A DNA stretch of 64,000 nt from an uncultured bacterium (GTDB taxonomy: Bacteria > Acidobacteriota > Aminicenantia > UBA2199). A program made the translations under genes and the position numbers. The DNA lies in the NCBI GenBank assembly GCA_965603365.1, contig CBFDCR010000010.1, positions 27,425-91,424 on the forward strand. Direction: 5' to 3'. A model generated the notes under the pieces. The model was not told where the DNA came from. It worked only from the letters and a program-made list of their open reading frames with translations, and did not search any database. Numbering within the stretch: the stretch's first letter is position 1; each line of letters begins with the position of its first letter. Below are positions 1,866 to 61,673 of this stretch, piece after piece.

Positions 1866-2804
1866 TTACGGCTGCAGGTTGTTGAACACCGATTCGTAGA
1901 GGCAGCGGTTGATGACCGCTTCGGCGGGTTCGATCTCCGGGAAAATTGCCTGCCAGGTTTCGGAGTCCTCCATACACAGGTAGAGGGGAATATCGGGGCC
2001 CAGTTGCGAACGGATGGTGTCGCGGGCTCCGTGGAACATCGCCAACCGCAGGGGTTTGAAATAACGGTACTTACCGTCGTAGCCTTTGATCAACTCCCCG
2101 GAAAAGAGTTGAGATTCCGGGTGTTTCAATATTTCGGCCCTCAAGGCATAGGGAAAGCGCAACGTTCCTAAGCTCCACCAGGCTATTCCTTCCGGTTGAA
2201 CCACGCCGGCGATCTCCCGTATCAAAGAGTCGTAAGCATCTTGCCAGTCGCCGACAGCCAGCATGGGGTCGAAGTGAATACCGATCTTATAGCCCCGTTC
2301 CTGCACCGCGGCCATGGCAGACAGCCGGGCGGACAGTGATGGGGTACCTGTCTCCTCTTTGTCGATTATACTCTGGGGATTGAGGGACCAGGAGATCACG
2401 ATATTTTTCACTACCCCTGGGTAAGTTAAGATGTTTTTGACATTGGCCGACTTGGTCTTGAATTCAAATACCACCTGCGGATACTGTTCAAAAAGGGCCA
2501 TGATTCCGGCTGCATAGTTGGCCTGGGGTTCGTATACCAGGGAGTCGGAGAGTTCACCTGAGCCGATGCGCAAATGCTGCTTGCCTTTGACAAAGGCGGC
2601 AAGCTCTCGCTCCATATCCTCGATATTGGTGTAAAAGACCGGCTCCTTGCTCTCCAGGTAGGCCTGCAGGATGCAGTAAGAGCAGTCGTAGGCGCAGCCG
2701 GTGTGCAGATTTAGGTTATAATAACCGCAGGAGACCGTCTCCGGCGAGCAGGGGCAGTGCTTGACAAAATTTCCCTTTTGCCGTTGATACTTAATCACTG
2801 GCAT
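1866..2804 (-). CDS. spore-photoproduct-lyase-family radical SAM protein (SplB-like)
   Basis: The protein is 312 aa with an N-terminal CX3CX2C motif (CAYDCSYC). The overall layout resembles SP-lyase-like radical SAM DNA repair proteins. Confidence 0.7.
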   Translation of the reverse strand: MPVIKYQRQKGNFVKHCPCSPETVSCGYYNLNLHTGCAYDCSYCILQAYLESKEPVFYTNIEDMERELAAFVKGKQHLRIGSGELSDSLVYEPQANYAAGIMALFEQYPQVVFEFKTKSANVKNILTYPGVVKNIVISWSLNPQSIIDKEETGTPSLSARLSAMAAVQERGYKIGIHFDPMLAVGDWQDAYDSLIREIAGVVQPEGIAWWSLGTLRFPYALRAEILKHPESQLFSGELIKGYDGKYRYFKPLRLAMFHGARDTIRSQLGPDIPLYLCMEDSETWQAIFPEIEPAEAVINRCLYESVFNNLQP

Positions 2805-2952
2805 ATAGTATCAATTTCCCCCCCCAATTTCAAGGCCACCATCCCAACCCCCATGTGCCAAACCTGGCCTGATCCCCAATCTATAAATATCATCATGCTA
2901 TCTCCTCTAAATGATTGAATACTACAGCCAGGAAAAGATGTCAAGTTTCTTT

Positions 2953-2969
2953 GTGTCTCGAAACGCTGC
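2953..2969. promoter_or_regulatory. upstream element copy 1 (GTGTCTCGAAACGCTGC), candidate enhancer-binding-protein site
   Basis: This is an exact 17-bp direct repeat of 3122..3138. It contains the imperfect dyad GTCTCGAAAC centred on TCGA and lies about 265 bp upstream of the sigma-54 element. Confidence 0.45.
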
Positions 2970-3121
2970 ATCTCTGAAATCCCTGGAAAGTATTGATATA
3001 AAAGCGGCAGTGCGTGATAAGGAGTCCCGGAGACAACTTTAGTGTAGGGAAACGGTACAAAGTTGAAAATATCTTATAGCAAAGGCTAAAGGGGGATAAT
3101 ACGGTTTTTGATGGGGGACGG

Positions 3122-3138
3122 GTGTCTCGAAACGCTGC
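3122..3138. promoter_or_regulatory. upstream element copy 2 (GTGTCTCGAAACGCTGC), candidate enhancer-binding-protein site
   Basis: This is an exact 17-bp copy of 2953..2969. It lies about 95 bp upstream of the -24 element, a typical UAS distance for sigma-54 activators, with AT-rich DNA in between. Confidence 0.5.
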
Positions 3139-3216
3139 GTTTTTGCGTGAGTACTCAAATTTGATAAAACGCCCTATATCCTCTAAATAAGACCGTTTTG
3201 AGCCTTTTTTTCAAGT

Positions 3217-3231
3217 TGGCACCATAGTTGC
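3217..3231 (+). promoter_or_regulatory. sigma-54 (RpoN) -24/-12 promoter
   Basis: TGGCAC-catag-TTGC matches the TGGCAC-N5-TTGC consensus exactly, with GG at 3218-3219 and GC at 3230-3231. It lies about 125 nt upstream of the first precursor ATG. Confidence 0.7.
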
Positions 3232-3355
3232 CCTTTCTTAAGAGTCAATCGTCTTTAAAACATAAGGACACCGTCGCTATCCTCGGACGGGTAGATGCGG
3301 GGTTCGTTTTAAAGTGTCCGGGTTGGCAAAAAATAAAACAAGGAGGATTAACACA

Positions 3356-3556
3356 ATGAAAATAAAGAAATTTAAGAACAGCGGTAATCACATCAAGGTC
3401 CAGAACCTGCGCAATGGTGAGATGCGGGCAGTGCGGGGAGGAACAGAGTATACCTGCGGCGGTGGAAGTGGTGATGACTGTACAAAGTTGGCAGTCCATG
3501 TGCCAGATGCTATGGCGATGGCGGAAAAAGCCGATCTTTTGTCAGTGTACAAATAA
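3356..3556 (+). CDS. RiPP-type precursor peptide A (66 aa; 29-aa leader ending RGG, Cys-containing core)
   Basis: ATG at 3356 follows RBS AGGAGGA (3341-3347). Sequence: MKIKKFKNSGNHIKVQNLRNGEMRAVRGG|TEYTCGGGSGDDCTKLAVHVPDAMAMAEKADLLSVYK. The leader resembles double-glycine bacteriocin leaders. It is paralogous to the next ORF and lies directly upstream of an RRE-containing radical SAM enzyme. Confidence 0.8.
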   Translation: MKIKKFKNSGNHIKVQNLRNGEMRAVRGGTEYTCGGGSGDDCTKLAVHVPDAMAMAEKADLLSVYK

Positions 3557-3582
3557 TAATTAAAATTTAAGGAGGAGAAAAA

Positions 3583-3777
3583 ATGAAAAAGACAACCAAT
3601 TTAAACGACCGTAAACACCTCTCCGTCCAGAAACTCCGCAACAGCGAGTTGAAGGCAACTTTAGCAGGTGAAATCATTACTTGCGGCTATGAAGGTGACC
3701 TTTGCAAGAAACTCTCTGTCGAGGTCCCTGGATGTGAAACCCTTCAGAATGAAAGCCACAAAGTGGTCTTAAGTTAG
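3583..3777 (+). CDS. RiPP-type precursor peptide B (64 aa; 29-aa leader ending LAG, 3-Cys core)
   Basis: ATG at 3583 follows RBS GGAGGAG. Sequence: MKKTTNLNDRKHLSVQKLRNSELKATLAG|EIITCGYEGDLCKKLSVEVPGCETLQNESHKVVLS. It shares the leader positions H12, VQ.LRN.E..A and G29 with peptide A, and the core motif TCG..GD.C.KL.V.VP. Confidence 0.8.
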   Translation: MKKTTNLNDRKHLSVQKLRNSELKATLAGEIITCGYEGDLCKKLSVEVPGCETLQNESHKVVLS

Positions 3778-3796
3778 CAAGCAATGCGCCCACAAA

Positions 3797-3852
3797 AGAA
3801 TCCGGTCTCGTATATCCGTCGATATATGAGACTGGATTCTTCTATTTTGTTT
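3797..3852 (+). terminator. long hairpin plus U-tract after the precursor genes (intrinsic terminator or attenuator)
   Basis: Bases 3797-3815 pair with 3822-3840 (19 bp: 17 Watson-Crick and 2 G-U) around the 6-nt loop CCGTCG. The T-rich tract TCTATTTTGTTT follows. The structure sits between precursor B and the first maturase gene. Confidence 0.6.
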
Positions 3853-3886
3853 GAGGATAATATAAGAGGATCAGGAGGTAAACAAA

Positions 3887-5494
3887 ATGAGACTTGAAAC
3901 ACCGCAGTGCAACGATCAGGAGCCAAAAATTACAGGTTCATTCAGAGATGGACTCTTCGGTAATTTACCGGTCGAATTGTTTCGCAGCAAACGGGGCTAT
4001 TACGCTTTCGATGCCCATAACGTGCGCATGGTGACCGTAGACCGGGTGAGTTACGATATTTTGCGGATCTTGCGGGAGCGTGAGGCAGGGGTAGATGAGA
4101 TCGTACGCCTTCTTGACCACCATCCTGCCAAACAGGTTCGAGAGGCGTTTGAGGAATTGATGGCTGTACAGGACGAAGGCTTTCTTCGTCGAGGCAGTTT
4201 TCGTCGCACCCCCCGCTTTGGCAAAACGGATATCCGCATGAAGCAGCGCCTTACCGAGGAGATGGCAGGGTTAACCATATCAATAACCGGCAAGTGCAAT
4301 CTGGCCTGTTCCTACTGCATCTATGGCGGGAACTACGACGCCCAGCGGCAGCTTTGCGGTGCCAGCATGAGTTGGGAGACCTTGAAAAATGCCATGATCT
4401 TCCTGGCCGATAATTCACGCCGTTCCGAAAGCGTACAGGTGGATTTTTTTGGCGGTGAACCGCTTCTTGAACACCGGCTCATCAAACGGGCGGTGGAGTT
4501 CCTGAAATCCCGTATTGGAACAAGAGAGACAAGAGTGGACGTTACTGTGGCGTCAAACGGCACCATATTAAACGACCGCATCCTGGAGTTTCTTGTCAAG
4601 CATAAAGTCTACCTCCAGTTCAGTATTGACGGCAGCCAGGAACAGCACGATCGCTACAGGATCTTCAAGGCGAATCGCCGGGGTAGTTTCAAAAAGATCA
4701 TGGAGAACCTGAAGAAAATCCACATCTTCGATCCGGAGTACTATCGCTCCTATATTCGCATCAAATCGGTTCAGACATCCGATCAAGACAACAGCCATGA
4801 CGATGCGTTCTGGCAGCATCCCCTCGTCAAACCGGTGGTGGAGGAAAAACACTTATCGGTCCTGCAGCTCAGGCCAGACTTTAACATCGAAAAAGATGGT
4901 GACTATTTTGACAGACTTGCCCGCATCGGGGAGCGATCACTGGCGCTGCGTAATGTTGAGACCCTGGATGATGTGCGCCAGGCTTTCCCACAAAAAGAGT
5001 GGCAATTTTTCTACTCTACTATCGCCAGATTCTTTAATGTTCAGGCGACCTACAATCTCTACAAGCGTGATAAGGCCGAAGTTCCCTTTACCAAGGGATG
5101 CTTATACGGATATAAAGAAGGGAATGTAGAACCCTCGGGCAAGATAACCATTTGTCATCTGGCCACCAATTGGGTCATCGGCGACGTTAATGAAGGGCGC
5201 TGGTATTTCGACAGGATTCGCAAATACGACCAACGTGTCCACAGTTGGCGTCCCTGCTCCGGTTGTTTTGCTCAACGTTTTTGTGATCTTTGTCCTGAAA
5301 AAATCGACGGTACAGAGGAAAATTATATAGAAAGCCGCAGCCGTTTTTGCGAGTTTCAGAGGGAAAACTACCGGGCTATATTCTCTTACGCGCTGGCGTT
5401 GTGTGAGGCGAATCCCGGGCTTTGGGACGAAGTGGATCGTTTAATCGAAGTGGGTTATCGCCGCGAGGAGAAAAAAAACAAGAAGGCTGCCTGA
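3887..5494 (+). CDS. radical SAM/SPASM-type peptide maturase with an N-terminal PqqD-like RiPP recognition element
   Basis: RBS AGGAGG is present. The CX3CX2C motif CNLACSYC lies at 4295-4318. The N-terminal ~100 aa look like a winged-helix RRE (VDRVSYDILRILREREAGVDEIVRLL...EELMAVQDEGFL). The C-terminal auxiliary-cluster Cys pattern is CSGCFAQRFCDLC...FCEF. Confidence 0.8.
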   Translation: MRLETPQCNDQEPKITGSFRDGLFGNLPVELFRSKRGYYAFDAHNVRMVTVDRVSYDILRILREREAGVDEIVRLLDHHPAKQVREAFEELMAVQDEGFLRRGSFRRTPRFGKTDIRMKQRLTEEMAGLTISITGKCNLACSYCIYGGNYDAQRQLCGASMSWETLKNAMIFLADNSRRSESVQVDFFGGEPLLEHRLIKRAVEFLKSRIGTRETRVDVTVASNGTILNDRILEFLVKHKVYLQFSIDGSQEQHDRYRIFKANRRGSFKKIMENLKKIHIFDPEYYRSYIRIKSVQTSDQDNSHDDAFWQHPLVKPVVEEKHLSVLQLRPDFNIEKDGDYFDRLARIGERSLALRNVETLDDVRQAFPQKEWQFFYSTIARFFNVQATYNLYKRDKAEVPFTKGCLYGYKEGNVEPSGKITICHLATNWVIGDVNEGRWYFDRIRKYDQRVHSWRPCSGCFAQRFCDLCPEKIDGTEENYIESRSRFCEFQRENYRAIFSYALALCEANPGLWDEVDRLIEVGYRREEKKNKKAA

Positions 5495-5539: not shown

Positions 5540-6661
5540 ATGAAAAAGCTGTATTTTATAGTCGTTTTATCGGGTCTTTTATATTTTTGTGGTTCTCAGG
5601 CAAAGAATATAGATAAACCCACTCAGGGTGAATGGGATTTTAAATTGAAAAAAGCCTGGGAAATCGGGCAAATAGGCGAAGATGTTCTGGTTGGGATTCG
5701 GGGGATTGGCGTAAATAAAGAGGGAAATCTTTTTTTATGGGACAGCCGGCAATCTACAGTATTCGTATGTAATTCCCAGGGCCAGTTATTATACCACTTT
5801 GGAAGTAGAGGAGAGGGACCGGGTGAAGTACTGGATAAATGGGCGACTCGCCTGTTTCTTACCGATAAGCATATCATTCTTCATGAAGTAAACACCGGCA
5901 GAATTCACTACTTTTCAGACAATGGAGAGTTCGAGAAAACCGAAAAAATATTAAAATTGAAATATGCCCGAGCCTTAAAAACATTTATTGATCCCGACCG
6001 GTTTTTGTTTTTTTTAGCTGAAGAACCTTCGGATAAACATGAAAATATCCTTGGCATTTATGACCTGTCAACTAAAAATTATGAAGTAATAACCAGAATG
6101 CCTGGAAACAAACCTCTGTCTGTAAATGATGAAAAAGCGGGAAATATAACTTTGCATGACCATGATGTTGCTGCTGCTGTAATATGTGCTCAATTTGAGA
6201 AAAAAAAAATATTTTATGGAAGAAATGATGAATATGTCATAACGGGAGTAGATTTAAAAATTAAAAAAACTATCTCCTTCTCCATAACCGGAAGAAAAGG
6301 TAGAAAAATTAGCGAAAAAACAAAAAATAAAAGATTTAGAAATTTGCCTATAAATAAACAATTATTAAAGCTGCTAATTAAAAAGTGTCCGGATAGAACA
6401 AGATTCTTTAACCGGATATTCATTGAAAAGACGGGATTAATATATGTATTTGTGCCCGATTGGGAAAAGACAAACTCTCTTGAAATAGATATATTTTCTC
6501 CAGAAGGAAAATATCTTTATCATTCAATAATCCGGATACCGGATGAATATAACAAAATTCGCAACCTTACTTTTAATTATAAAGATCTTTACTTTACCGC
6601 CGAAGATCAAAACGGCGAGATTAAATTAGTAAAATTTAATATTACCTCTCCAACAATATAA
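5540..6661 (+). CDS. lipoprotein, 6-bladed beta-propeller-like family (unknown function)
   Basis: The signal peptide has a lipobox-like Cys (MKKLYFIVVLSGLLYFCGS). Repetitive beta-strand-rich sequence ends in ...GEIKLVKFNI, typical of TolB-like or '6-bladed beta-propeller' paralog families. The gene is visibly more AT-rich than its neighbours. Confidence 0.6.
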   Translation: MKKLYFIVVLSGLLYFCGSQAKNIDKPTQGEWDFKLKKAWEIGQIGEDVLVGIRGIGVNKEGNLFLWDSRQSTVFVCNSQGQLLYHFGSRGEGPGEVLDKWATRLFLTDKHIILHEVNTGRIHYFSDNGEFEKTEKILKLKYARALKTFIDPDRFLFFLAEEPSDKHENILGIYDLSTKNYEVITRMPGNKPLSVNDEKAGNITLHDHDVAAAVICAQFEKKKIFYGRNDEYVITGVDLKIKKTISFSITGRKGRKISEKTKNKRFRNLPINKQLLKLLIKKCPDRTRFFNRIFIEKTGLIYVFVPDWEKTNSLEIDIFSPEGKYLYHSIIRIPDEYNKIRNLTFNYKDLYFTAEDQNGEIKLVKFNITSPTI

Positions 6662-6913: not shown

Positions 6914-8431
6914 ATGGGCAGAGCAGTACGTGAGGGATTGCCATTTGGCAAAGAGACACCTATTGAGGTAATCGAGAAGATTGGAAAGGACGGCCTCTCA
7001 GGTGGAGTATCGGATGTGTGTTTGTTTCCAACATACAAATGCGACCTGAATTGCTACATGTGCCATGTGCAGCACACCAGGGGCAAGGACGATCCATACT
7101 TGTCCCCGGGGCAGCTAAAAGAGGTATTTGACGATGTGAAGGTAACTACGATGTTCCATCTAGGCGGCGAGCCGTTCGTAAGGCCCGAAATGATGGAAAT
7201 TCTCAAATACTTCGATTCCAGGAGGACGAACCAGATCATTTCCACTAATGGTACCAATGTGACCGAGACAATGGCTGAGGAATTAGCCAGGTTGAAACAT
7301 CTGGTATGTGTCCAGGTCTCCTTGAACGGAACGGGGGAAAATGACAATATCATAAGAGGGTCTTCAAAGGCCTTTGAAACGACAGTTGAAGGTATCAAAA
7401 TCCTTAAAAAGGCAGGTCTTCAAACGTGGATCCACAGCGTGGTCCTGAACGAAAATATCGACGATCTGGCAAACATTGTAAGGCTCGGTGGAGAACTGGG
7501 GGTTGGCATGGTCAATTTCCTTTTCGGCCAGATGATGTCGGCAGAAGAGGCAAAGAAAACAAAGGATGTCATCAGGAAGTGGATAGGCGAAGAGGTGGAT
7601 ATAGGGGGATACATTGGGGAAATCGCTTATTCGAAGGAGCAATTGATCAACAGCGTAAATGCGGCAAAAGAGGAAGGAAAGAGGCTCGGCCTTCAGGTCA
7701 TGTTCTTTCCCCGTGTGTTTGGAGATAAACCGGAGATTTATTGGGATGGTACATTGCTGGAGCAAGAAAGGCCCATATGCCAGATGACCCTCATGCCGCC
7801 CCTTACCCCCATTGTGGGACCCGAAGGAGATGTTTACGGGTGCTGTATAGTAAACAAGAGCTTTGGAAATGTAAAGGAGCAATCATTAGAAGAGATATGG
7901 GATTCGCCCACACTTCGGGCATTCAGGCGGGGCCTTATCAATGACAAACTAATGCCCGTCTGTAAACGCTGTCCCAGCGGTGACATCATCGACCTCTCCG
8001 CCCCCAGGAGGCAATTATTTGCCGACCTTGCCGCCTGGGAGGCATACCTGGAACGCCTGACCAGAGCACTCAATGACCTACCCGAGCTTTCACCTGTCTT
8101 GAATAATATTGCCCCGGTGAGGTTCCAATACGAAATTAGCGATCGCCCCGAATATAACTACTGGCACGTTTTTGAGAAGGACGAGGTTCGCCTGGGGTTG
8201 GGAATAAATAGAGAGGATAATATTCCCAGGCTCATCCATAAGACCGACTTTGATACCCTCAATAAAGTGAATGCAGGTGAAATAAACCCTATCCAGGCAA
8301 CCATGGATGGTACCTATGCCGTAGATGGCGAGATGTCGAAGCTCATGGCCTGCGCCCCGTTAATTCCGCTGACCATCAAGGCACATGGCATCGCCATTGC
8401 GGATGTTAAAGATACCGACAGGGAGGGATGA
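6914..8431 (+). CDS. radical SAM enzyme with a partial SPASM/twitch Cys region and a C-terminal SCP2-like domain (paralog 1)
   Basis: RBS GGGAGG is present. CDLNCYMC lies at 7040-7063. The mid-protein region reads PICQMT...GDVYGCC...GNVKEQSLEEIWDS...PVCKRCP. The C-terminal ~100 aa match the SCP2 pattern (HKTDFDTLNKVNAGEINPIQATMDGTYAVDGEMSKLMACAPL). Confidence 0.75.
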   Translation: MGRAVREGLPFGKETPIEVIEKIGKDGLSGGVSDVCLFPTYKCDLNCYMCHVQHTRGKDDPYLSPGQLKEVFDDVKVTTMFHLGGEPFVRPEMMEILKYFDSRRTNQIISTNGTNVTETMAEELARLKHLVCVQVSLNGTGENDNIIRGSSKAFETTVEGIKILKKAGLQTWIHSVVLNENIDDLANIVRLGGELGVGMVNFLFGQMMSAEEAKKTKDVIRKWIGEEVDIGGYIGEIAYSKEQLINSVNAAKEEGKRLGLQVMFFPRVFGDKPEIYWDGTLLEQERPICQMTLMPPLTPIVGPEGDVYGCCIVNKSFGNVKEQSLEEIWDSPTLRAFRRGLINDKLMPVCKRCPSGDIIDLSAPRRQLFADLAAWEAYLERLTRALNDLPELSPVLNNIAPVRFQYEISDRPEYNYWHVFEKDEVRLGLGINREDNIPRLIHKTDFDTLNKVNAGEINPIQATMDGTYAVDGEMSKLMACAPLIPLTIKAHGIAIADVKDTDREG

Positions 8432-8434
8432 ATA

Positions 8435-9952
8435 ATGGTAGTAGAGAAAATAGGCTGCGGTGTGAGCAGGCGCGAAGGGATGCCCCTGGGCAAGGATACG
8501 CCGCTAGAGGTCATTCAAAAGATCGGGGCAAGCGGACTTTCCGGTGGAATTCACGATGTTTGCTATTACCCGACCTTCAAGTGCGACTTGAATTGTTACA
8601 TGTGCCTTGTAAAGCACAGGAAGGATAATATTGTCACTCCTATGTCCTCAGAGCAGGCGAAGACTGCCTTTAGGGATGTTAAAACCTTATTCTATCTAGG
8701 AGGAGAGCCCTTCACGTGCGGCAATACCCTGGAATTAATGAAACACTTCGACGATAATGGAATAAACCAGATCATCTCCACAAACGGAATCCACATCACC
8801 CAATCCACGGCAGAGAAGCTGGCGGAACTGAAAAAGCTGGTTGTCATACAGGTCTCATTGAATGGCTCGGGCGAAAATGATAACGGCATAAGAGGATGGT
8901 CACAGGCATTTGAAACAACGGTAGATGGCATCAAGGTTCTCACTAATGCCGGCTTACCCGTATGGATTCACTGCGTGATATTGAACGAAAACATAGACGA
9001 TCTTGTTAATGTTGTCAAACTGGGTGTGGAGTTGGGGGTTGACGCGGTTAATTTCATCTTTGCCCATGTGACGACCCCCGAAGAGATCCAGGCCACGAAA
9101 GAACTATTGAAGGAATGGACCGGCCAAGATGTGGAGGTGAATGGTTACGTTGGGGAATTGTCATATTCGGAAGAGCAATTGGTAAACAGCATCAATGCCG
9201 TAAAGGAAGAGGGAAGAAAAAATGGCATCCAGATCATGTTTTTTTCAAAATTGTTCGGGGACAGACCCGAACTCTACTGGCAGGGAAAATTACTGGAGCA
9301 AGAAAACCCCATTTGCCAATTAACCCTGATGCCACCGCTTACTCCGGCCATCGGACCCGATGGTGACGTTTTTTTATGTCCCTACATCGAAAAGAGTTTC
9401 GGTAACGTGAACACAGCTACCCTGGAGGACATCTGGGACTCGGAACAACTTCAAGCCATCCGCAGGGGAATGATCAACGGTAAGATGTTGCCCATTTGCA
9501 GACGCTGCCCTTGCAGCGATGAGATCAATACGCCCACATCTGGAGAACAAGGGGCCGTGAACAAAGCCCTCTGGGAAACTTATTTAAAGAACTTAACCAA
9601 AGCGCTCAATGATCTCCCGGAGGTTCGACCTATTTTAGAAAATCTCGCCTATGCCCCCGTGGTCTTCCAATACCACATCACCAATCGCCCCGAATTTAAC
9701 TACTGGCATGCCTTTAGAAAGGATGGTATCTACCTGGGTATGGGTGAGAACGAGGAAGAAGATGTCACAAAGCTCATCCACTCCACCGACCTTGATACCC
9801 TGAGAAAGGTAAATTCAGGGGAAGCAAATCCCGTGCAAGCGACCATGGCAGGAACCTACTCCGTGGATGGTGACATGACGATCCTCATGTCCTGTTCGCC
9901 GTTACTACCGTTAACGGTAACAGCACACGCTATTACTGCCAGGCAAGATTAA
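8435..9952 (+). CDS. radical SAM enzyme with a partial SPASM/twitch Cys region and a C-terminal SCP2-like domain (paralog 2, tandem duplicate)
   Basis: The gene starts 3 nt after the previous stop. It is the same length (505 aa) and colinear with 6914..8431. CDLNCYMC lies at 8582-8605. It carries PICQLT...GDVFLCP...GNVNTATLEDIWDS...PICRRCPC and the SCP2-like tail (HSTDLDTLRKVNSGEANPVQATMAGTYSVDGDMTILMSCSPL). Confidence 0.75.
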   Translation: MVVEKIGCGVSRREGMPLGKDTPLEVIQKIGASGLSGGIHDVCYYPTFKCDLNCYMCLVKHRKDNIVTPMSSEQAKTAFRDVKTLFYLGGEPFTCGNTLELMKHFDDNGINQIISTNGIHITQSTAEKLAELKKLVVIQVSLNGSGENDNGIRGWSQAFETTVDGIKVLTNAGLPVWIHCVILNENIDDLVNVVKLGVELGVDAVNFIFAHVTTPEEIQATKELLKEWTGQDVEVNGYVGELSYSEEQLVNSINAVKEEGRKNGIQIMFFSKLFGDRPELYWQGKLLEQENPICQLTLMPPLTPAIGPDGDVFLCPYIEKSFGNVNTATLEDIWDSEQLQAIRRGMINGKMLPICRRCPCSDEINTPTSGEQGAVNKALWETYLKNLTKALNDLPEVRPILENLAYAPVVFQYHITNRPEFNYWHAFRKDGIYLGMGENEEEDVTKLIHSTDLDTLRKVNSGEANPVQATMAGTYSVDGDMTILMSCSPLLPLTVTAHAITARQD

Positions 9953-9968: not shown

Positions 9969-11333
9969 TTGAGAATGGATTGGGAAGCCGAGGTTGGAGA
10001 GATATTTAAAAAACTTGTTGCCCAGGTTCCGGACCAGTTCCGTCCCATGGTGGAGCCGCTGCTGCACGACACTGCAGAGAAAAAATGCGTCGAGAGGAAC
10101 GCCGGCGTGGTCAATAATGACGACCTGATAACCGCTCTGTTCGATATTACCCCCGAGCCCTTCAAGGCCCAGGCCATAGACAACTGCAAGGCCATCGGCA
10201 TTGACCCGCAGAGATATATAGAGCTCAAAGAGGTACAGGAACAGTATAAATTAAGCTGGGAGAAGTTCGGCAAGGCGTTTCACCCTGGCAACAAGCACTT
10301 CGCCATGTACATTACGGACAGGTGCAACCAGAAATGCCTCCACTGTGCCGCAGATTCCGAAGAGCATCGGGAGGAGCTTTCCACCGACCGGTGGATACAG
10401 ATCGTGGAGAACCTCGAATTCGGCCTTCGTAAGGAGGGGAGGCGCGGGGTCTACATATGGTTCGGCGGGGAGCCCACCTGCCGCCAGGACCTACCCGAGC
10501 TGATCAAGTACTGCGGCGATAAAGGATACCACCAGGCCTTGATCACCAATGGTATACTTTTCGACGAGGACCTGGCAAAGTTCTGTGCCGACAACGGTAT
10601 GGGCCACCTGTTCGTCAGCTTCGACAGCGCAGACCCTGAAAAGAACGACAGGATCAGGGGCGCAGCCCATTCACTCGAGTATGCCAGAAAGGCAGTGGAA
10701 AACGCCCTCAAGTACGGGATATTCGCCTGCGGCTCCACCACCGTAATGAAACAGAACATCGATGAACTGGAGGATATAAAGAAGATGGCCGAGGCGTGGG
10801 GGGCTGCCCCCTATTTCAGGGCGGTGGTGAAGCAGAAGAAGGCGGCCGAGAACTGGGACGAGATCGGGCTTTCTACCGAGGAATACAAGACGCTGTACGA
10901 TTTCAAGTACACACATGTCATCGATGCCATAAGGGAGGGGAAGGGTGAGGCCCTGCCCATATACTCCATCTTCGAGATGGTGCCCTTTATGGAAAAACCC
11001 CTGAATAACAAGGAGCTCACGGCTCTGGAGTGGGGCGTTGGTTGTCAGGCCTGCCGGATATTCAACGGCATCGATGTCAACGGCGATGTCTTTCCCTGCG
11101 GCTATCCCTCCAACCTGATACTGGGCAATGCCCTTACAGACAGCTTTGAAGACATCATGAACTCACAAATCTACAAGGATATTCGCGATAGAAAACGTAA
11201 CGGAAAATGCGCTGGATGCCACCACCTCGATCTCTGCGGTGGGGGGTGCAGGGTACATGCAGAATGCGATACCGGCGACTTTTTCGCCTCCTTTTCATAT
11301 TGCTGGCACCAAAACGACCACCACCATGCTTAA
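9969..11333 (+). CDS. radical SAM/SPASM enzyme with an N-terminal PCP_red-like helical domain and a His-rich C-terminus
   Basis: CNQKCLHC lies at 10323-10346. A full 7-Cys SPASM pattern is present (CQAC...PCGY...GKCAGCHHLDLCGGGC). The N-terminal ~95 aa (DWEAEVGEIFKKLVAQVPDQFRPMVEP...) resemble the PF08369-type domain. The protein ends WHQNDHHHA. Confidence 0.75.
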   Translation: MRMDWEAEVGEIFKKLVAQVPDQFRPMVEPLLHDTAEKKCVERNAGVVNNDDLITALFDITPEPFKAQAIDNCKAIGIDPQRYIELKEVQEQYKLSWEKFGKAFHPGNKHFAMYITDRCNQKCLHCAADSEEHREELSTDRWIQIVENLEFGLRKEGRRGVYIWFGGEPTCRQDLPELIKYCGDKGYHQALITNGILFDEDLAKFCADNGMGHLFVSFDSADPEKNDRIRGAAHSLEYARKAVENALKYGIFACGSTTVMKQNIDELEDIKKMAEAWGAAPYFRAVVKQKKAAENWDEIGLSTEEYKTLYDFKYTHVIDAIREGKGEALPIYSIFEMVPFMEKPLNNKELTALEWGVGCQACRIFNGIDVNGDVFPCGYPSNLILGNALTDSFEDIMNSQIYKDIRDRKRNGKCAGCHHLDLCGGGCRVHAECDTGDFFASFSYCWHQNDHHHA

Positions 11334-12607: not shown

Positions 12608-13567
12608 CTAGCCGCCGTAATAGGGGATGGGATAGGCGGCGGCATAACCCACGTAATTACAACCGTAGATAATCCACATAAAACCACCCTCGGTTTCTTG
12701 ATCGATTCGACCGTCTCCGTTGATATCTACGCCGCCCCAGTCGGTGTCCCAGGAGTTCTTCAGCAGCCAGGCGCCGGCAGGCCCCAGGCTGTCGTCCCAG
12801 CCGCATAAGGCCACACAGTGGTTGAGCTCGGAACCTGTGCAGTGGTCAAACACACCGCCGCTGTAGGCCTGGAACCAATAATCGGCGACGATGCCCACCG
12901 CCACCGAGCCGTAATCCATGATGGCCTGTTTGATGTCGTTCACCGGCGGAACACTGCCGCTGTTTCCCACCCAATCCCAATCGTAGATGAAATAGAGATG
13001 GGAGCAGGAGTGATTACAGGGTTTTTTATAGCCCACATAGGGATAACAGGTCTCTGTCAGCGCGCCCTCGTTCATGAACATGTAAAAATTGATAAAGCCC
13101 CCCTGGCAGCTCCAGCCCCAGGGGTTACAGTCCAACAGCCACTGCTCCGATAGATCCTCTTCGGTGCTCATCATCTTCTTGATCAGTCCCTCGACAGCAC
13201 TCGCCATGCAGAAGGCCCAGCAACTGCCGCAGGCCCCCTGATCCTTGGCCGGCGTATAATAACCGATGTAGCGGGAGGGCAGATCCAATCGGACGGTGAA
13301 ATTCTGATCGTCGGCTTCCACTCTGGTGCTGGTCTCCCCCATGGCCAGCTCCGTCTTAAAACAACATAACTGGCTCAAGGGATACTGGCAGGCGGAGTTG
13401 TAGTCCACCGTGAAGGAATAGCCCCTCTCGTTAATCTCCTTTCTCATTTGTTCCAGTTGGTCTTGCCAATCGTTCTCGCTGATTGTTGTGGTTCCCTTTA
13501 TTCCTGTTACCAGGATTAATGAGAAAACCACAATCGTTAAAGAAAAAACAAGGAAAAATTTTTTCAT
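12608..13567 (-). CDS. secreted papain-family (C1A) cysteine peptidase
   Basis: A signal peptide is present, and the canonical motifs are KDQGACGSCWAF (Cys), LNHCVALCGW (His) and LLKNSWDTDWG (Asn). Confidence 0.85.
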   Translation of the reverse strand: MKKFFLVFSLTIVVFSLILVTGIKGTTTISENDWQDQLEQMRKEINERGYSFTVDYNSACQYPLSQLCCFKTELAMGETSTRVEADDQNFTVRLDLPSRYIGYYTPAKDQGACGSCWAFCMASAVEGLIKKMMSTEEDLSEQWLLDCNPWGWSCQGGFINFYMFMNEGALTETCYPYVGYKKPCNHSCSHLYFIYDWDWVGNSGSVPPVNDIKQAIMDYGSVAVGIVADYWFQAYSGGVFDHCTGSELNHCVALCGWDDSLGPAGAWLLKNSWDTDWGGVDINGDGRIDQETEGGFMWIIYGCNYVGYAAAYPIPYYGG

Positions 13568-13645
13568 GATAACCTCCTTTTTACATAATTATATTATGTT
13601 ACCTTCAGAAGATTTTCAACAAATAAATCAATTTTAACTAAAAAT

Positions 13646-14008
13646 TTAGCCCCGGTGGGCAGAATCGGGGGAGAAGGCGGGCCGGCAGACGGCGATGTAT
13701 TCAGCCCCTTCGGGACCGGGAGTGGCGTATCGTACCCATTCGCCCCGGCGGGTCATGATGGCTTCACCGGCCCTGACATCGATCGTATCCTGTTTCGATT
13801 CCACCCTCAATGTGCCTTTCAGCACCACGGTATATTCGTCGAATTCCGGGGTCTGGCCCGGTTCGGCCCAGCCCGGCGGACTGATCATCCGGGCAATACT
13901 TAAATCTGTGGTCCGGGTATTGACCCGGCCAATATACTCCTCGATTTTCTTGGGTTTGTTGCCGGCGGCTTTAACCACGGCAGGCCCTTTTACTAAAGTC
14001 GGCATCAT
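13646..14008 (-). CDS. small cupin-fold protein
   Basis: The 120-aa protein shows a cupin-like pattern (PEFDEYTVVLKGTLRVE...DVRAGEAIMTRRGEWVRY). I see no HxH metal motif. It has the same orientation as, and lies 78 nt upstream of, the C1 peptidase gene. Confidence 0.55.
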   Translation of the reverse strand: MMPTLVKGPAVVKAAGNKPKKIEEYIGRVNTRTTDLSIARMISPPGWAEPGQTPEFDEYTVVLKGTLRVESKQDTIDVRAGEAIMTRRGEWVRYATPGPEGAEYIAVCRPAFSPDSAHRG

Positions 14009-14178
14009 TTACCTCGCTTGTATGGATTCAGATGAAATAATACCCCCCTGATGCCCAAAATTCAACTGCTTTCCGCTCTGGAGTTACCCCAAAGAATAAA
14101 ATTCGAAATCCCAAAGTAAGGGACCTGTGATTTTCGAAAAATGGGCACAGAAAAGAGGTCAGACAAGACTGTCACCCC

Positions 14179-14835
14179 CTAAAATTCTAATTTATAGATA
14201 TATAATCTTTCCGTTTCATCGTGACTTTTACTGGCCAATAGATAGCCGTCGTCCGAGATGAAAAAAGGGTTTAAATTTTTATCAACCGAAAGCCTAACTT
14301 TTGGGTTTTTGGTTTTACCGTCGAAGATGAGACAATCACAGCCCACGGTCTCGCCGAATTCCTTTCGATATTTCAATTTCGTTAAAAAAACGACAAAGTG
14401 ACTCTTGTAAACAAGAATCGATCTGATAAAAGGCACATAGGCAATCGGGGGATATTTAACCGGGAAATCCAGGAAATGGGAAGGGAATGTGTACTGCTTC
14501 TCTATTTCATATTGAAATTGATCCTGATATTTCCCATCCACCGAATAGACAAAAAATTCAACCGGGTTGTTGGGATAGACGAAAGAGATGAGCATTCTAC
14601 CGCTGCCTTTATCGATGCCGATTTTAGGGTTCAGATAAAAACTCATTTACAGCGCCTTTTGGGAGAGCTTTCTCCCTGTATTGATGTGAATGGGTGTTTC
14701 ATCAAAAAAAGAGTAGGTCGAATACGAATGGGTATCGATATTCCTTAGATCTGCCGGAGCACCTTTCCACTTTGATTCAACTGCCGGTGGACGTTCGTAT
14801 TTTAAATTTTGCGCCGATTTCCTTTGTTCATTCAT
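14179..14835 (-). pseudogene. remnant of a 6-bladed beta-propeller-family gene (two ORFs separated only by an in-frame TAA; N-terminally truncated)
   Basis: ORFs 14835..14647 and 14646..14179 are in the same frame, with TAA (14649-14647) immediately followed by ATG. There is no signal peptide. The C-terminal part (...LIFDGKTKNPKVRLSV...ERLYIYKLEF) resembles the tail of the 5540..6661 protein, and the region is equally AT-rich. Confidence 0.4.
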
Positions 14836-14859
14836 GGAACGGGTCGTCCGACACTACCT

Positions 14860-14908
14860 GGACATGAAATCCCTGCTCCGCCGAAGTATTAAGGAGGCCT
14901 TCGCATCA
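14860..14908. repeat. dispersed 49-bp repeat, copy A
   Basis: GGACATGAAATCCCTGCTCCGCCGAAGTATTAAGGAGGCCTTCGCATCA matches 38697..38745 at 43 of 49 positions by my hand alignment. Confidence 0.7.
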
Positions 14909-15027
14909 TGAGCCTTAACCAGGAACTCATTCAAAAACGATGCCAGGAGATTGCCGATTCTTTGAAGAGTAAAAAAGGGGGCACGCGAAAAATGTCCTTT
15001 TCCCAGAGCCACGTCGTAGTTTTTTAA
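14908..15027 (+). pseudogene. short HepT/DUF86-like N-terminal remnant (39 aa)
   Basis: ATG follows RBS AAGGAGG. MSLNQELIQKRCQEIADSLKS resembles HepT/DUF86 N-termini. It overlaps the stop of a 25-aa upstream ORF by ATGA, as in MNT-HepT pairs. It is far too short to be functional. Confidence 0.3.
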
Positions 15028-15078
15028 ACCGCCCCAGGTATCCTTAGTCAAAGCTGAAGAGTATGGGGCGTGAGTCTA

Positions 15079-15201
15079 TTATAAGGTCTCGAAGTCTTTC
15101 GGGGAGAGACCGGTCAACTCGGCGATTTCAGCGCTGCCCTCTTCGCCGAAGAGCTTTTTAAAGCCGACATCGGTATAGGAATTAATATACCGCGCCTTCA
15201 T
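15079..15201 (-). pseudogene. internally deleted Rpn-family (PD-(D/E)XK nuclease/transposase-like) gene remnant, 40 aa
   Basis: MKARYINSYTDVGFKKLFGEEGS matches the hallmark N-terminus of Rpn-family proteins (..YINP.TD.GFKKLFGEE). It is fused directly to a short C-terminal-like tail (AEIAELTGLSPKDFETL). Confidence 0.6.
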
Positions 15202-15310
15202 CGCCGCGTTTCCATTTTTATATTCTGTTAGCAATTTTAAACGCAATCGTTCTATTTTTCAACAGCAAAACAAGCACCTTAAAATTTCTCCGTGCCAGCG
15301 GGTTGGGGGA

Positions 15311-17779
15311 TCAGGGGATGAGGTTTAATATTCTGCCTTTGACGTAGATGGCCTTGCGCAGGGGACCGTCGCCTAGGTGACGGCGGACGGCCTCGTTTTC
15401 CAGGGCGATCTTGAGGGCGGTATCCTGGTCGGCATCGGCGGGGACCTTGATGCTGGCCCGCAGTTTACCCTTGACCTGGACGCCGATCTCGATCTCCGCC
15501 TCCCTCAGGTATTGGGGATCGTGCTTCGGCCAGGTACAGTCGAAGACCAGGTTTGGGGACCCCAGCCTCTCCCACAGTTCACAGGCGAAGTGGGGGGCAA
15601 AGGGGGAGATCAGGATCAGGAAATCCCGGATGGTGTCGGTGGTGATGCCCTGCTTCTCTCCGGCAATGGTGTTGATAAACTCCATGAAGGCGGAGAGTGC
15701 GGTGTTAAACTTGAAGAGTTCCATCCGCTGGCTGACATCGTGGATGAGGCGGTGTCGGGCCCGGGTCACCGTCAGACTCTCTTCATCGCCGAAGGTATTG
15801 TCCTCTTTATGCTGGAGTGTCAAGTCCCAGGCCTTCTTGAGGAAACGGAATATACCGATAATGCCCGAATCGGACCACTCGCTGTCCAGGTCCGGCGGGC
15901 CGATGAAGAGTTCGTAGAGGCGCAGCGAATCGGTGCCGTACCGCCGGATGATGTCGTCGGGGCTGACCACGTTGCCTTTGGATTTGGACATCTTCTCGAT
16001 CTTGCCGGTCTTCTGGCTCATGCGGGTGACCATGCCGATGCAGAAGAGTTTCTTGAAGGGTTCGTCGAAGTCCACTGCCCCGATGTCGTAGAGAAACTTG
16101 ATGTAGAAGCGGGCATAGAGCAGGTGCAGGATGGCGTGCTCGATGCCGCCCACGTACTGGTCTACCGGCATCCAGGCGCTGCCGATGGTGGGATCAAACA
16201 TTCCTTTATCGTAAGCGGGGCTGATGTAGCGCAGGAAGTACCAGCAGGAACCGGCCCACTGGGGCATGGTGTTGGTCTCCCGCTTGGCCGGGCCGCCGCA
16301 TTGGGGGCATGGGACATTGACCCAGTGGTGTATGGCGGCCAGGGGCGACTCCCCCGTGCCGGTGGGTTCGTACTGTTTGACATCCGGCAGGGTTACCGGC
16401 AGATCCTCTTCCGGCACCGGCACCTCGCCGCATTTTTCACAGTGGATGATGGGAATGGGTTCGCCCCAGTAGCGCTGCCGGGAAAAGACCCAGTCCCGGA
16501 GTTTATAGTTGACCTGGAACCTGCCCAGGCCCTCCTGTTCTAAATCTTTGGTGATCTTTTTCTTGCCCTCGACGCTGTGAAGGCCGGTATATGCGCCGCT
16601 GTTGACCATGGTGCCTTCGCCGATGTAGGCCTCCAGCAGCTTGCCGTCCGCATCTTTTTGGGCCTTGGGGCTGGAGATCACCTCGATGATGTCCAGGCCA
16701 AACTTGCTGGCAAACTCGAAGTCCCGTTCGTCGTGGGCCGGAACCGCCATGATGGCGCCGGTGCCGTAGCCCATGAGCACGTAGTCGGAGATCCAGACCG
16801 GTATTTTCCGGTGGTTGACCGGGTTAACGGCAAAGGCGCCGGTAAACACGCCGGTCTTCTCCTTTTCCAGCGAGGTGCGCTGCAGGTCCGATTTCTGGCG
16901 GGACTCGGCGGTATAGGCCGCCACCCTCTCTTTTTGCCCCGGGCCGGTGATTTTGTCGACCAACTGGTGCTCGGGGGCCAGTACCATGTAGGTGGCGCCA
17001 AACAGGGTGTCCGGCCGGGTGGTAAAGACTGGCATCGGGTACTCTTTGCCATCGACTGCCGAGACGATGGTGAAGGTCACTTCCGCGCCTTCGCTGCGGC
17101 CGATCCAGTTCTTTTGCAGGATCTTGACGTTTTCCGGCCACTCCAGTTTGTCCAGGTCGTGCAGCAGCCGCTCGGCATAGTGGGTGATTTTCAACATCCA
17201 CTGCATCAGGTCTTTTTTGCTGACCACGCTGCCGCAGCGTTCGCAGCGGCCGTTGATGACCTCTTCGTTGGCGATGCCGGTCTTGCAACTGTCGCACCAG
17301 TTGATGGGCACCATCTGGCGGTAGGCCAGGCCCTTCTTGTACATCTGCACGAAGATCCACTGGGTCCAGCGGTAATAATCGGGGTCGGCGGTGCTGATCT
17401 CCCTGGTCCAGTCGATCATGCAGCCGAACTCCTTCAACTGGCGGGTGAAGTTCTCGATGTTTTTCTGGGTGTTGATGCGGGGGTGGATCTTCTTCTGGAT
17501 GGCGTCGTTTTCCGCCGGCAGGCCAAAGGCATCGAAGCCCATGGGGTGCAGCACGTTGCAGCCATGCATCTTCTTATACCGGCTCCACACATCGCTCAGC
17601 ACGTAACCGCGGGGGTGGCCGACGTGAAGGCCGCTGCCGCTGGGGTAGGGGAACATATCCAGGCAGTAGTATTTGTTGTCGGCAGCGGTGGTATCGCAGT
17701 GGTGGAGACCTTTCTCTTCCCAGCGGTCTCGCCATTTTTTCTCATAATCAACCGGTCTAAACTTCGTGGGACTCATCAC
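15311..17779 (-). CDS. leuS: leucine--tRNA ligase
   Basis: The 822-aa protein has the class I motifs HVGHPRGY (HIGH) and KMSKSKGN (KMSKS), and LeuRS-specific colinear sequence throughout. Confidence 0.97.
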   Translation of the reverse strand: MMSPTKFRPVDYEKKWRDRWEEKGLHHCDTTAADNKYYCLDMFPYPSGSGLHVGHPRGYVLSDVWSRYKKMHGCNVLHPMGFDAFGLPAENDAIQKKIHPRINTQKNIENFTRQLKEFGCMIDWTREISTADPDYYRWTQWIFVQMYKKGLAYRQMVPINWCDSCKTGIANEEVINGRCERCGSVVSKKDLMQWMLKITHYAERLLHDLDKLEWPENVKILQKNWIGRSEGAEVTFTIVSAVDGKEYPMPVFTTRPDTLFGATYMVLAPEHQLVDKITGPGQKERVAAYTAESRQKSDLQRTSLEKEKTGVFTGAFAVNPVNHRKIPVWISDYVLMGYGTGAIMAVPAHDERDFEFASKFGLDIIEVISSPKAQKDADGKLLEAYIGEGTMVNSGAYTGLHSVEGKKKITKDLEQEGLGRFQVNYKLRDWVFSRQRYWGEPIPIIHCEKCGEVPVPEEDLPVTLPDVKQYEPTGTGESPLAAIHHWVNVPCPQCGGPAKRETNTMPQWAGSCWYFLRYISPAYDKGMFDPTIGSAWMPVDQYVGGIEHAILHLLYARFYIKFLYDIGAVDFDEPFKKLFCIGMVTRMSQKTGKIEKMSKSKGNVVSPDDIIRRYGTDSLRLYELFIGPPDLDSEWSDSGIIGIFRFLKKAWDLTLQHKEDNTFGDEESLTVTRARHRLIHDVSQRMELFKFNTALSAFMEFINTIAGEKQGITTDTIRDFLILISPFAPHFACELWERLGSPNLVFDCTWPKHDPQYLREAEIEIGVQVKGKLRASIKVPADADQDTALKIALENEAVRRHLGDGPLRKAIYVKGRILNLIP

Positions 17780-61266: not shown

Positions 61267-61673
61267 GAGAGAGGAAGATGATAAAGTATTGAATTTTACC
61301 AAAGAGCTTCTTCGAGTTCAAGTTCATTTGACGGTAAATCCTGGACACACTCAAAATGATGCCCCTTTTTTGGCAATGTCGGGGTTTTTACCCCAACGAC
61401 GGGCTTTTAAGGGACAAAGAGGTGATTATCGATCATAAAAGGGGGGAGCAAAGAAATGTGTTCGTTTGCGGACAGGCGATGTACGGCCAGCGAACAGGAT
61501 AAAGAAACAAATTAGGGGCCGTGGGCCGTAAATCTTTCGATACAGTCTATGTTTGGGGACATGTGGTTTTTTTATTTATTCAGGCATGGATATTGCTGCA
61601 TAAAATATATGAAAATAGAACTTTTTTCGAATAGTTTCGTATGTAATTTATTTAGTGCAAGCGGAGGATTTGT

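Follow-up and report, generated by a model that had tools for sequence, protein, structure and literature searches.

A predicted sigma-54 promoter with three conserved upstream dyads at a two-peptide radical-SAM RiPP operon of uncultured Aminicenantes

We analyzed a stretch of 64,000 nucleotides from an uncultured bacterium of the Aminicenantia, which we will call the window. Near one end of the window is an intergenic region of 551 bp (2805-3355), with a minus-strand radical SAM gene on one side and a plus-strand operon for two precursor peptides on the other. The peptides were identified as open reading frames with Shine-Dalgarno sequences, and the proteins encoded downstream of them were identified with Pfam and NCBIfam. 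The genes are:

1866-2804, minus strand: radical SAM gene, spore-photoproduct-lyase-like (SPL-like), divergent from the peptide operon
3356-3556, plus strand: precursor peptide A, 66 aa, with leader ...LRNGEMRAVRGG and core TEYTCGGGSGDDCTKL...
3583-3777, plus strand: precursor peptide B, 64 aa, with leader ...LRNSELKATLAG and core EIITCGYEGDLCKKL...
3887-5494, plus strand: CcpM-like radical SAM (rSAM) maturase
5540-6661, plus strand: beta-propeller protein
6914-8431, 8435-9952, and 9969-11333, plus strand: three rSAM/SPASM proteins

The leaders of peptides A and B end in GG or AG, and there is cysteine in the cores. Neither peptide matches a family in Pfam or NCBIfam. The maturase scores 213.7 bits against TIGR04068 in NCBIfam (CcpM-type Cys-rich peptide radical SAM maturase), which is below the cutoff of 500 bits; this putative maturase is from a radical SAM family that is related to CcpM yet distinct from it. 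Just upstream of the divergent radical SAM gene, 321-1864 contains a gene for an ECF-type sigma factor and then a gene with TonB_C and M23 peptidase domains, and the same arrangement is found in a sister strain (L001).

An exact-sequence look-up of the window's maturase gave no record, and we reached its relatives via homologues. These include a tight group of maturase orthologues at 68-99% identity, whose named members are Candidatus Aminicenantes MAGs. Ordered by maturase identity, the loci are L001-L003 (99%), L004/L005 (81%), L006 (77%), L007 (77%), L091/L092 (74%), L008/L093 (~71%), and L009 (68%). When we searched genome contigs with the maturase alignment, we found almost only CcpM loci from Firmicutes, at 24-31% identity, as well as one short contig from Polyangiaceae. 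A search of metagenome contigs with the maturase gave four loci, two of which were repeats (L090 is the same as L004, and L093 is close to L008). Our comparison of promoters and upstream sites is based on seven distinct orthologous loci whose rSAM maturases are 68-81% identical. Orthologues of peptides A and B are found in the same place in L006, L008, and L009.

Within the intergenic region and the transcript that is predicted to arise from it, we identified these elements (dyad positions are relative to the predicted transcription start, and their scores and ranks are those of a weight matrix that is described below):

2954-2970, plus strand: distal dyad TGTCTCGAAACGCTGCA, centre at about -281; 20.6 bits, rank 1 in the window
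3043-3059, plus strand: middle dyad TGTAGGGAAACGGTACA, centre at about -192; 16.5 bits, rank 3 in the window
3123-3139, plus strand: proximal dyad TGTCTCGAAACGCTGCG, centre at about -112; 17.1 bits, rank 2 in the window
3217-3231, plus strand: putative sigma-54 -24/-12 element TGGCAC-CATAG-TTGC (TGGCACCATAGTTGC), an exact match, with GG at 3218-3219 and GC at 3230-3231
3242-3244, plus strand: predicted transcription start, 11-13 nt 3' of the -12 GC, placed by standard sigma-54 promoter geometry
3244-3327, plus strand: leader stem-loop of ~85 nt in the 5' UTR of peptide A, with a minimum free energy of -31.8 kcal/mol (z = -3.0)
3797-3840, plus strand: 20-bp hairpin and then a T-run, between peptide B and the maturase gene, from a terminator scan

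A first-pass annotation of the window had reported a sigma-54 promoter, TGGCAC-N5-TTGC, at 3217-3231. We confirmed this element, and it is the sole exact match in the 64 kb. By chance we would expect 0.11 matches, and 11 of 100 shuffled windows contained at least one. The sequence at 3217-3232 (TGGCACCATAGTTGCC) fits TGGCAC-N5-TTGC (15 nt) at all 10 of its positions, and it fits the 16-nt consensus TGGCACG-N4-TTGCW at 10 of the 12 specified positions. The element is in the correct orientation, with 125 nt between its GC and the start codon of peptide A. We scanned the plus strand from 2811 to 3356 for sigma-70-like promoters and found none; a 9/12 match to a sigma-70-like promoter at 2784-2811 overlaps the start codon of the divergent gene. 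In all of the loci with 68-99% identical maturases, the orthologous promoter reads TGGCA[C/T/A]-N5-TTGC and is upstream of the first peptide gene. GG-N10-GC is found at the aligned position in L001, L004/5, L006, L007, L008/L093, L009, and L092.

A second sigma-54-like element (AGGCATGGATATTGCT) is found far from this operon, at 61582-61597 of the window. It is intergenic and is 92 nt upstream of the gene for an outer-membrane efflux protein (61674-63224). There is no dyad of the TGTnnCG-AAA-CGnnACA type (see below) upstream of it, and we rejected a CGATACA half-site near 61536, as ~8 such 7-mers are expected by chance. A near-identical element (TGGCATGAATATTGCA, at 13058 in L097, another Aminicenantes genome) precedes genes for membrane-fusion and ABC transporter proteins.

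Upstream of the promoter, the first-pass annotation had described two copies of an exact 17-mer, GTGTCTCGAAACGCTGC, at 2953-2969 and 3122-3138. Both copies are present, at 264 and 95 bp from the promoter, as had been reported. The window contains exactly two copies (0.07 expected), none of 100 shuffled windows had two, and there are no further copies with up to three mismatches anywhere in the window. The two upstream elements are real, but a third site, TGTAGGGAAACGGTACA at 3043-3059, had been missed, and the 10-bp dyad that had been proposed within each copy (GTCTCGAAAC) is not the relevant symmetry. We searched every locus for TGT-N11-[A/G]C[A/G] and placed the matches with respect to the promoter, and the consensus over the loci is a 17-bp inverted repeat, TGTnnCG-AAA-CGnnACA, with a 7-3-7 layout. 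In the window, these 17-bp dyads are centred on 2962, 3051, and 3131, and the previously described 17-mers are the outer dyads offset by one base. We rejected the 10-bp sequence as the recognition unit because conservation is among the highest at positions 15-17 of the 17-mer (the ACA arm), and only the 17-bp dyad accounts for this.

The outer dyads of the window are imperfect (their right halves contain TGCA or TGCG, not nnACA), and TGT/ACA symmetry is best in the middle dyad. In strain L001, which is 99% related, the 17-bp dyad carries one substitution at each outer copy, and there is another substitution at the first base of the proximal 17-mer as originally described. Given the substitutions in the outer copies, the exactness of the repeat is incidental, and it is the dyad that is kept.

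All three dyads have counterparts at other loci. The distal dyad is matched at -279 to -291 in L001, L006, L007, L008, and L009; the middle dyad is matched at -190 to -192 in L001, L007, and L008 and at the aligned position in L006 (TGGTACGAAACGGCACA); and the proximal dyad is matched at -112 in L001, L006, and L009 and at the aligned positions in L007, L008, and L092. In other words, the window, L001, L006, L007, and L008 have three sites at near-identical positions, while in L009 only the sites at -291 and -112 are clear. A bEBP (bacterial enhancer-binding protein) enhancer would have multiple dyad-symmetric sites 80-300 bp upstream of the promoter, and the window has three 17-bp sites, at -281, -192, and -112, whose consensus across loci is a dyad. 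As another approach, we trained a weight matrix on 16 sites from the other loci only and ran it over both strands of the 64 kb. Its top three hits are the three dyads, with 0.13 hits expected at that score, but similarity and position guided our choice of the training sites, so this is not a fully independent test of the window's sites. The next-best hit (51790, minus strand) scores 13.9 bits, where the mean maximum in simulations was 14.3 bits, and we disregarded it as chance level.

Conservation is concentrated on these elements. Among five distinct loci, the GGCA and TTGC core of the promoter has a mean pairwise identity of 100%, as compared to 45-51% for the DNA between the upstream sites and 30% for the DNA further upstream. 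The core positions of the dyads are 70-82% identical across loci. Judged by this comparison, the pattern shows that the putative promoter element and the upstream sites have a function and are not there by chance.

The sites are 80-89 bp apart and span 170 bp. This spacing far exceeds that of classical NtrC enhancers, which makes the assembly of a single ring harder to picture. AT-rich, bendable DNA had been noted between the proximal copy and the promoter. This DNA is indeed 65% AT, as compared to 49% for the whole window, but in none of 8 loci did this interval contain a match to the IHF consensus (WATCAANNNNTTR, up to one mismatch). With 65% AT and no IHF consensus, the argument from bendable DNA is weak. 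An IHF site or an intrinsic bend between the enhancer and the promoter is common but not obligatory.

Sigma-54 promoters are frequent within the clade of close relatives. Among more distant members of the maturase family, with 36-46% identity, a plausible TGG-N9-TTGC is found in L094, along with a bEBP with an FHA domain at a distance of 3.4 kb. In L095 and L096, the peptides are preceded by sigma-70-like promoters; L096 nonetheless has a bEBP gene next door. Sigma-54 control characterizes this clade and does not extend to the entire maturase family.

Some of the relatives have more than one arrangement of this kind. L092 contains two opposed cassettes of three dyads and a sigma-54 promoter (25-613). 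In L097, a second dyad triplet with a sigma-54 promoter is found 3.5 kb away from the first; the additional cassette of this genome (2667-2978) precedes a gene for a 241-aa protein of unknown function. The recurrence of the three-dyad and sigma-54 cassette in L092 and L097 hints at a regulon of multiple operons. In L009, a second cluster with a precursor peptide and a radical SAM protein lies directly downstream of the first one (13105-16900). This second cluster has a receiver-less bEBP of its own, in which the motif is a GAYTGA variant, and its peptide is preceded, at a distance of 117 nt, by a sigma-54-like promoter (TGGCAATATAATTGC, at 14841).

If the dyads are activator sites, then which protein binds them? 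The first-pass annotation found no bEBP gene in the window, and neither did we: none of the major ORFs in the window contains the Sigma54_activat domain (Pfam), the GAFTGA motif is not found in any of the six frames of the window, and tblastn of the window with the bEBP, kinase, and peptide sequences of related loci gave only hits with E > 0.1. We also found no bEBP in the contig of L001, which extends ~6.6 kb beyond the window's start, or within 10 kb of the L006 and L007 loci. Similarly, rpoN is absent from the window and from the 6.6 kb further upstream in L001. Genes with Sigma54_activat are present in the close relatives L004/5, L008, L009, L097, and L100. To our knowledge, bEBPs act only on the sigma-54 holoenzyme, so these genes imply that sigma-54 is present in the lineage.

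In L005, the orthologous peptide operon is divergent from an operon that encodes a 69-aa GG-leader peptide, a histidine kinase with Reg_prop and Y_Y_Y domains, and a response-regulator bEBP. There is a separate TGGCAT-N5-TTGC for this regulator operon, on the minus strand, and the interval between the two opposed sigma-54 promoters contains three dyads (TGTATTAAAACGATACA and similar sequences). L097, whose bEBP is 76% identical, has the same operon of peptide, kinase, and bEBP, with no maturase cluster nearby. The regulator operon of L097 is preceded by three dyads of the CGTATCGAAATGATACG type, with sigma-54 promoters flanking them in both directions. L100, which is a complete Ca. Aminicenantes genome (CP070627.1) with a 66% identical bEBP, has an operon of the peptide and the bEBP, without the kinase. 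Here the three dyads (9268-9534) are TGTAACG-N3-CGTTAC[A/G], and they are directly upstream of a perfect sigma-70 promoter, TTGACA-N16-TATAAT, that precedes the peptide-bEBP operon. The putative dyad-binding protein may also act, or repress, at promoters that do not use sigma-54, and in L100 it may be a repressor or another kind of regulator. The bEBPs of L097 and L100 both contain GAFTGA, and their HTH_8 recognition helices are near-identical. This family of candidate bEBPs is abundant in Aminicenantes, with 596 matches at E <= 1e-80. We searched for the orthologue from the window's own organism and did not find it; the best guess, P0136, is from another sample.

The peptides that come first in these regulator operons (L005 4217-4426, minus strand; L097 6644-6847; L100 9604-9801) are 65-69 aa long, with GG leaders and a weak match to Lant_leader_dom.

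To summarize these loci, dyad triplets accompany the candidate bEBP operon in three genomes of Aminicenantes (L005, L097, and L100), and the histidine kinase is present in two of them. From this association, we infer that the orthologue of this bEBP, encoded elsewhere in the genome, is the activator of the window's promoter; a response-regulator bEBP of the L005/L097/L100 type is the likely candidate. The position of the dyad triplets upstream of the regulator operon suggests that this operon might be autoregulated, possibly with peptide signalling.

The predicted transcript has two prominent hairpins. The base of the leader stem-loop coincides with the predicted transcription start. The stem-loop is kept in 6 distinct loci, with 30 pairs: 93% of the cells in the alignment are paired, as compared to 36-48% if the partners are slid, and 7 pairs show compensatory changes, as compared to 1.8 in shuffles. 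In the other loci, there are ~90-100 nt between the stem-loop and the promoter. A scan of 2800-3900 against Rfam gave only chance-level matches, with no family for the stem-loop, and a covariance model found no copies beyond the loci that were used to build it. The stem-loop could be an mRNA stabiliser, a processing site, or a protein-binding site. For the second hairpin (3797-3840), the sequence of the stem, and not only its structure, is kept in L005-L009, while the T-run is clear only in the window. This hairpin would be a leaky terminator or a 3' stabiliser, and it may be more than a simple terminator.

Putting these observations together, we consider it quite probable that 2805-3355 is the activator-dependent sigma-54 promoter of a two-peptide radical-SAM RiPP operon, with three dyads and with the bEBP from the GG-leader-peptide operon as the activator. 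This would agree with the first-pass proposal that a sigma-54 promoter with activator sites drives the peptide operon. That proposal is supported by the conserved GG/GC core and by the conserved sequences and positions of the sites, as well as by the bEBP genes that adjoin or lie near the orthologous operon in several relatives and by the lack of a sigma-70-like promoter on the plus strand. The peptide operon would then probably be switched on only upon a signal, by an NtrC-type activator that is encoded outside the window.

We propose the following mechanism. RNA polymerase with sigma-54 would sit on the promoter in a closed complex, while dimers of the NtrC-family response-regulator bEBP would bind the three dyads. 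Once phosphorylated by its kinase, the bEBP would form an AAA+ ring, which would reach the polymerase through DNA looping and open the promoter at the expense of ATP, with a transcription start near 3243. Further along the transcript, the second hairpin (3797-3840) would probably lower read-through into the maturase genes, and the precursors would outnumber the enzymes. The activator would be an orthologue of the response-regulator bEBP from the GG-leader-peptide operon, and in this genome it would be encoded outside the 64-kb window.

The main alternative is that the sigma-54 promoter is genuine but the dyads bind another protein (another bEBP, a non-bEBP repressor, or a co-regulator). This would fit with the lack of a bEBP gene within reach in the window, L001, L006, and L007. 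Also, the two bEBPs near the L009 cluster are of other kinds: one is a response-regulator bEBP with an HTH_8-type recognition helix that differs from that of the candidate family, and the other is receiver-less. Furthermore, the half-sites in the window deviate from the GTATCG or GTAACG half-sites that are found beside the peptide-bEBP operons, and the promoter next to this type of dyad in L100 is a perfect sigma-70 promoter. On this last point, NtrC is known to repress its own expression at a sigma-70 promoter. In favor of the candidate bEBP, three independent genomes show the dyad together with a bEBP of the L004/L097/L100 family, the dyad of L005 is common to the bEBP operon and the orthologous peptide operon, and a 17-bp dyad with a 7-3-7 layout at -112 and beyond is what would be expected of an NtrC-family activator. 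We think that binding by a protein other than the candidate bEBP is unlikely.

It is also conceivable that the upstream 17-mers serve the divergent SPL-like radical SAM gene (1866-2804, minus strand), either instead of the peptide promoter or in addition to it. The distal copy is only ~150 bp from the start of the divergent gene, and L005 and L092 have opposed sigma-54 promoters that share or flank sets of dyads. However, the minus strand of the window's intergenic region contains no GG-N10-GC. Furthermore, a different divergent gene is found in L006-L009, and the distance from the dyads to the peptide promoter remains fixed across the loci, which ties the dyads to the peptide promoter. Given this, a role at the divergent gene seems very improbable. 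Least probable of all is a chance sigma-54-like sequence and a chance repeat, with no regulatory role, in intergenic DNA that diverged recently and is still similar: shuffling the window does yield exact promoter-like matches (11 of 100), and the entire intergenic region can be aligned among the relatives, but the core positions stand out in their conservation (100% and 70-82%, versus 30-51% elsewhere), this conservation persists down to 68% identity of the maturase, and two exact 17-mers arose in 0 of 100 shuffles.

With the activator-dependent sigma-54 promoter and its three dyads, the regulation of a RiPP cluster from an uncultured phylum can be cast as a testable model, which specifies the class of promoter, three activator sites, and a family of candidate activators. 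Under this model, expression of the cluster in a heterologous host should require sigma-54 together with the right bEBP in its activated form, or else replacement of the promoter; otherwise, the cluster should be silent.

Overall, the putative sigma-54/bEBP system is of the canonical kind, and what is new is where it is found, at a two-peptide radical-SAM RiPP operon of an uncultured phylum. The closest known systems are the sigma-54 enhancers that are bound by NtrC or ZraR, such as glnAp2 of enteric bacteria. The sites of NtrC and ZraR are 17-bp inverted repeats with a 7-3-7 layout. As in the window, these enhancers combine a -24/-12 promoter with several 7-3-7 sites at least 100 bp upstream, and the response-regulator bEBPs of the window's relatives share the architecture of NtrC and ZraR (a receiver, AAA+ with GAFTGA, and a Fis-type HTH_8). 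Unlike those enhancers, the window has TGTnnCG half-sites, its sites are 80-89 bp apart over 170 bp rather than clustered, and there is no IHF site. Also, the target in the window is a RiPP precursor operon, instead of genes for nitrogen or metal stress, and the activator gene is unlinked in this genome. The window's TGT...ACA arms upstream of a sigma-54 promoter also recall the NifA upstream activator sequence (TGT-N10-ACA), but this is a resemblance only: the spacing in the window is N11, the inner CG-AAA-CG core is absent from the NifA sequence, and the bEBPs of the relatives have receiver domains, not GAF domains.

Sigma-54 promoters with EBP sites are known to directly drive genes for secondary metabolites in Myxococcus xanthus, with Nla28 and HsfA as the EBPs (PMC7910581). 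The targets in Myxococcus are polyketide and non-ribosomal peptide clusters, and most of the promoters are predicted to be intragenic (PMC7910581). In contrast, the promoter in the window is intergenic, it precedes ribosomal precursor peptides, and it is from a different phylum. In the literature, we found no report of sigma-54/EBP control for RiPP operons or for Aminicenantes. The loci that we analyzed suggest that ribosomal peptides, too, are among the natural products under sigma-54 control, and that this control may be coupled to a module of peptide, kinase, and regulator.

The order of genes in L005 and L097, with a GG-leader peptide, then a kinase, and then a response regulator, resembles the three-component systems of Firmicutes (induction peptide, histidine kinase, and response regulator), which control class II bacteriocins and the autoinduction of lantibiotics. 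A system of this kind would have co-transcribed genes for the peptide, the kinase, and the regulator, and sites for the regulator upstream of both the regulatory and the structural operons. In L005 and L097, putative sites for the regulator precede both its own operon and a two-peptide operon, and L100 has only the peptide and the regulator. The differences are that the regulator of these relatives is an NtrC-type bEBP that would act at sigma-54 promoters, instead of a LytTR or OmpR regulator at sigma-70 promoters, and that the sites are dyads, not direct repeats. Also, the sensor of the kinase in these relatives is periplasmic, with Reg_prop and Y_Y_Y domains; no part of the module is found in the window, and the peptide is a putative signal. 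Tentatively, and with more doubt than confidence, we suggest that the window's promoter might be the output of an undescribed circuit. In such a circuit, a secreted GG-leader peptide would be sensed by a Reg_prop/Y_Y_Y kinase, which would phosphorylate an NtrC-type bEBP that binds triplets of TGTnnCG-N3-CGnnACA, and the bEBP would activate sigma-54 transcription of its own operon and of unlinked two-peptide radical-SAM RiPP operons across the Aminicenantes. If this is correct, then the circuit would be a sigma-54 analogue of the three-component quorum sensing of bacteriocins in Gram-positive bacteria.
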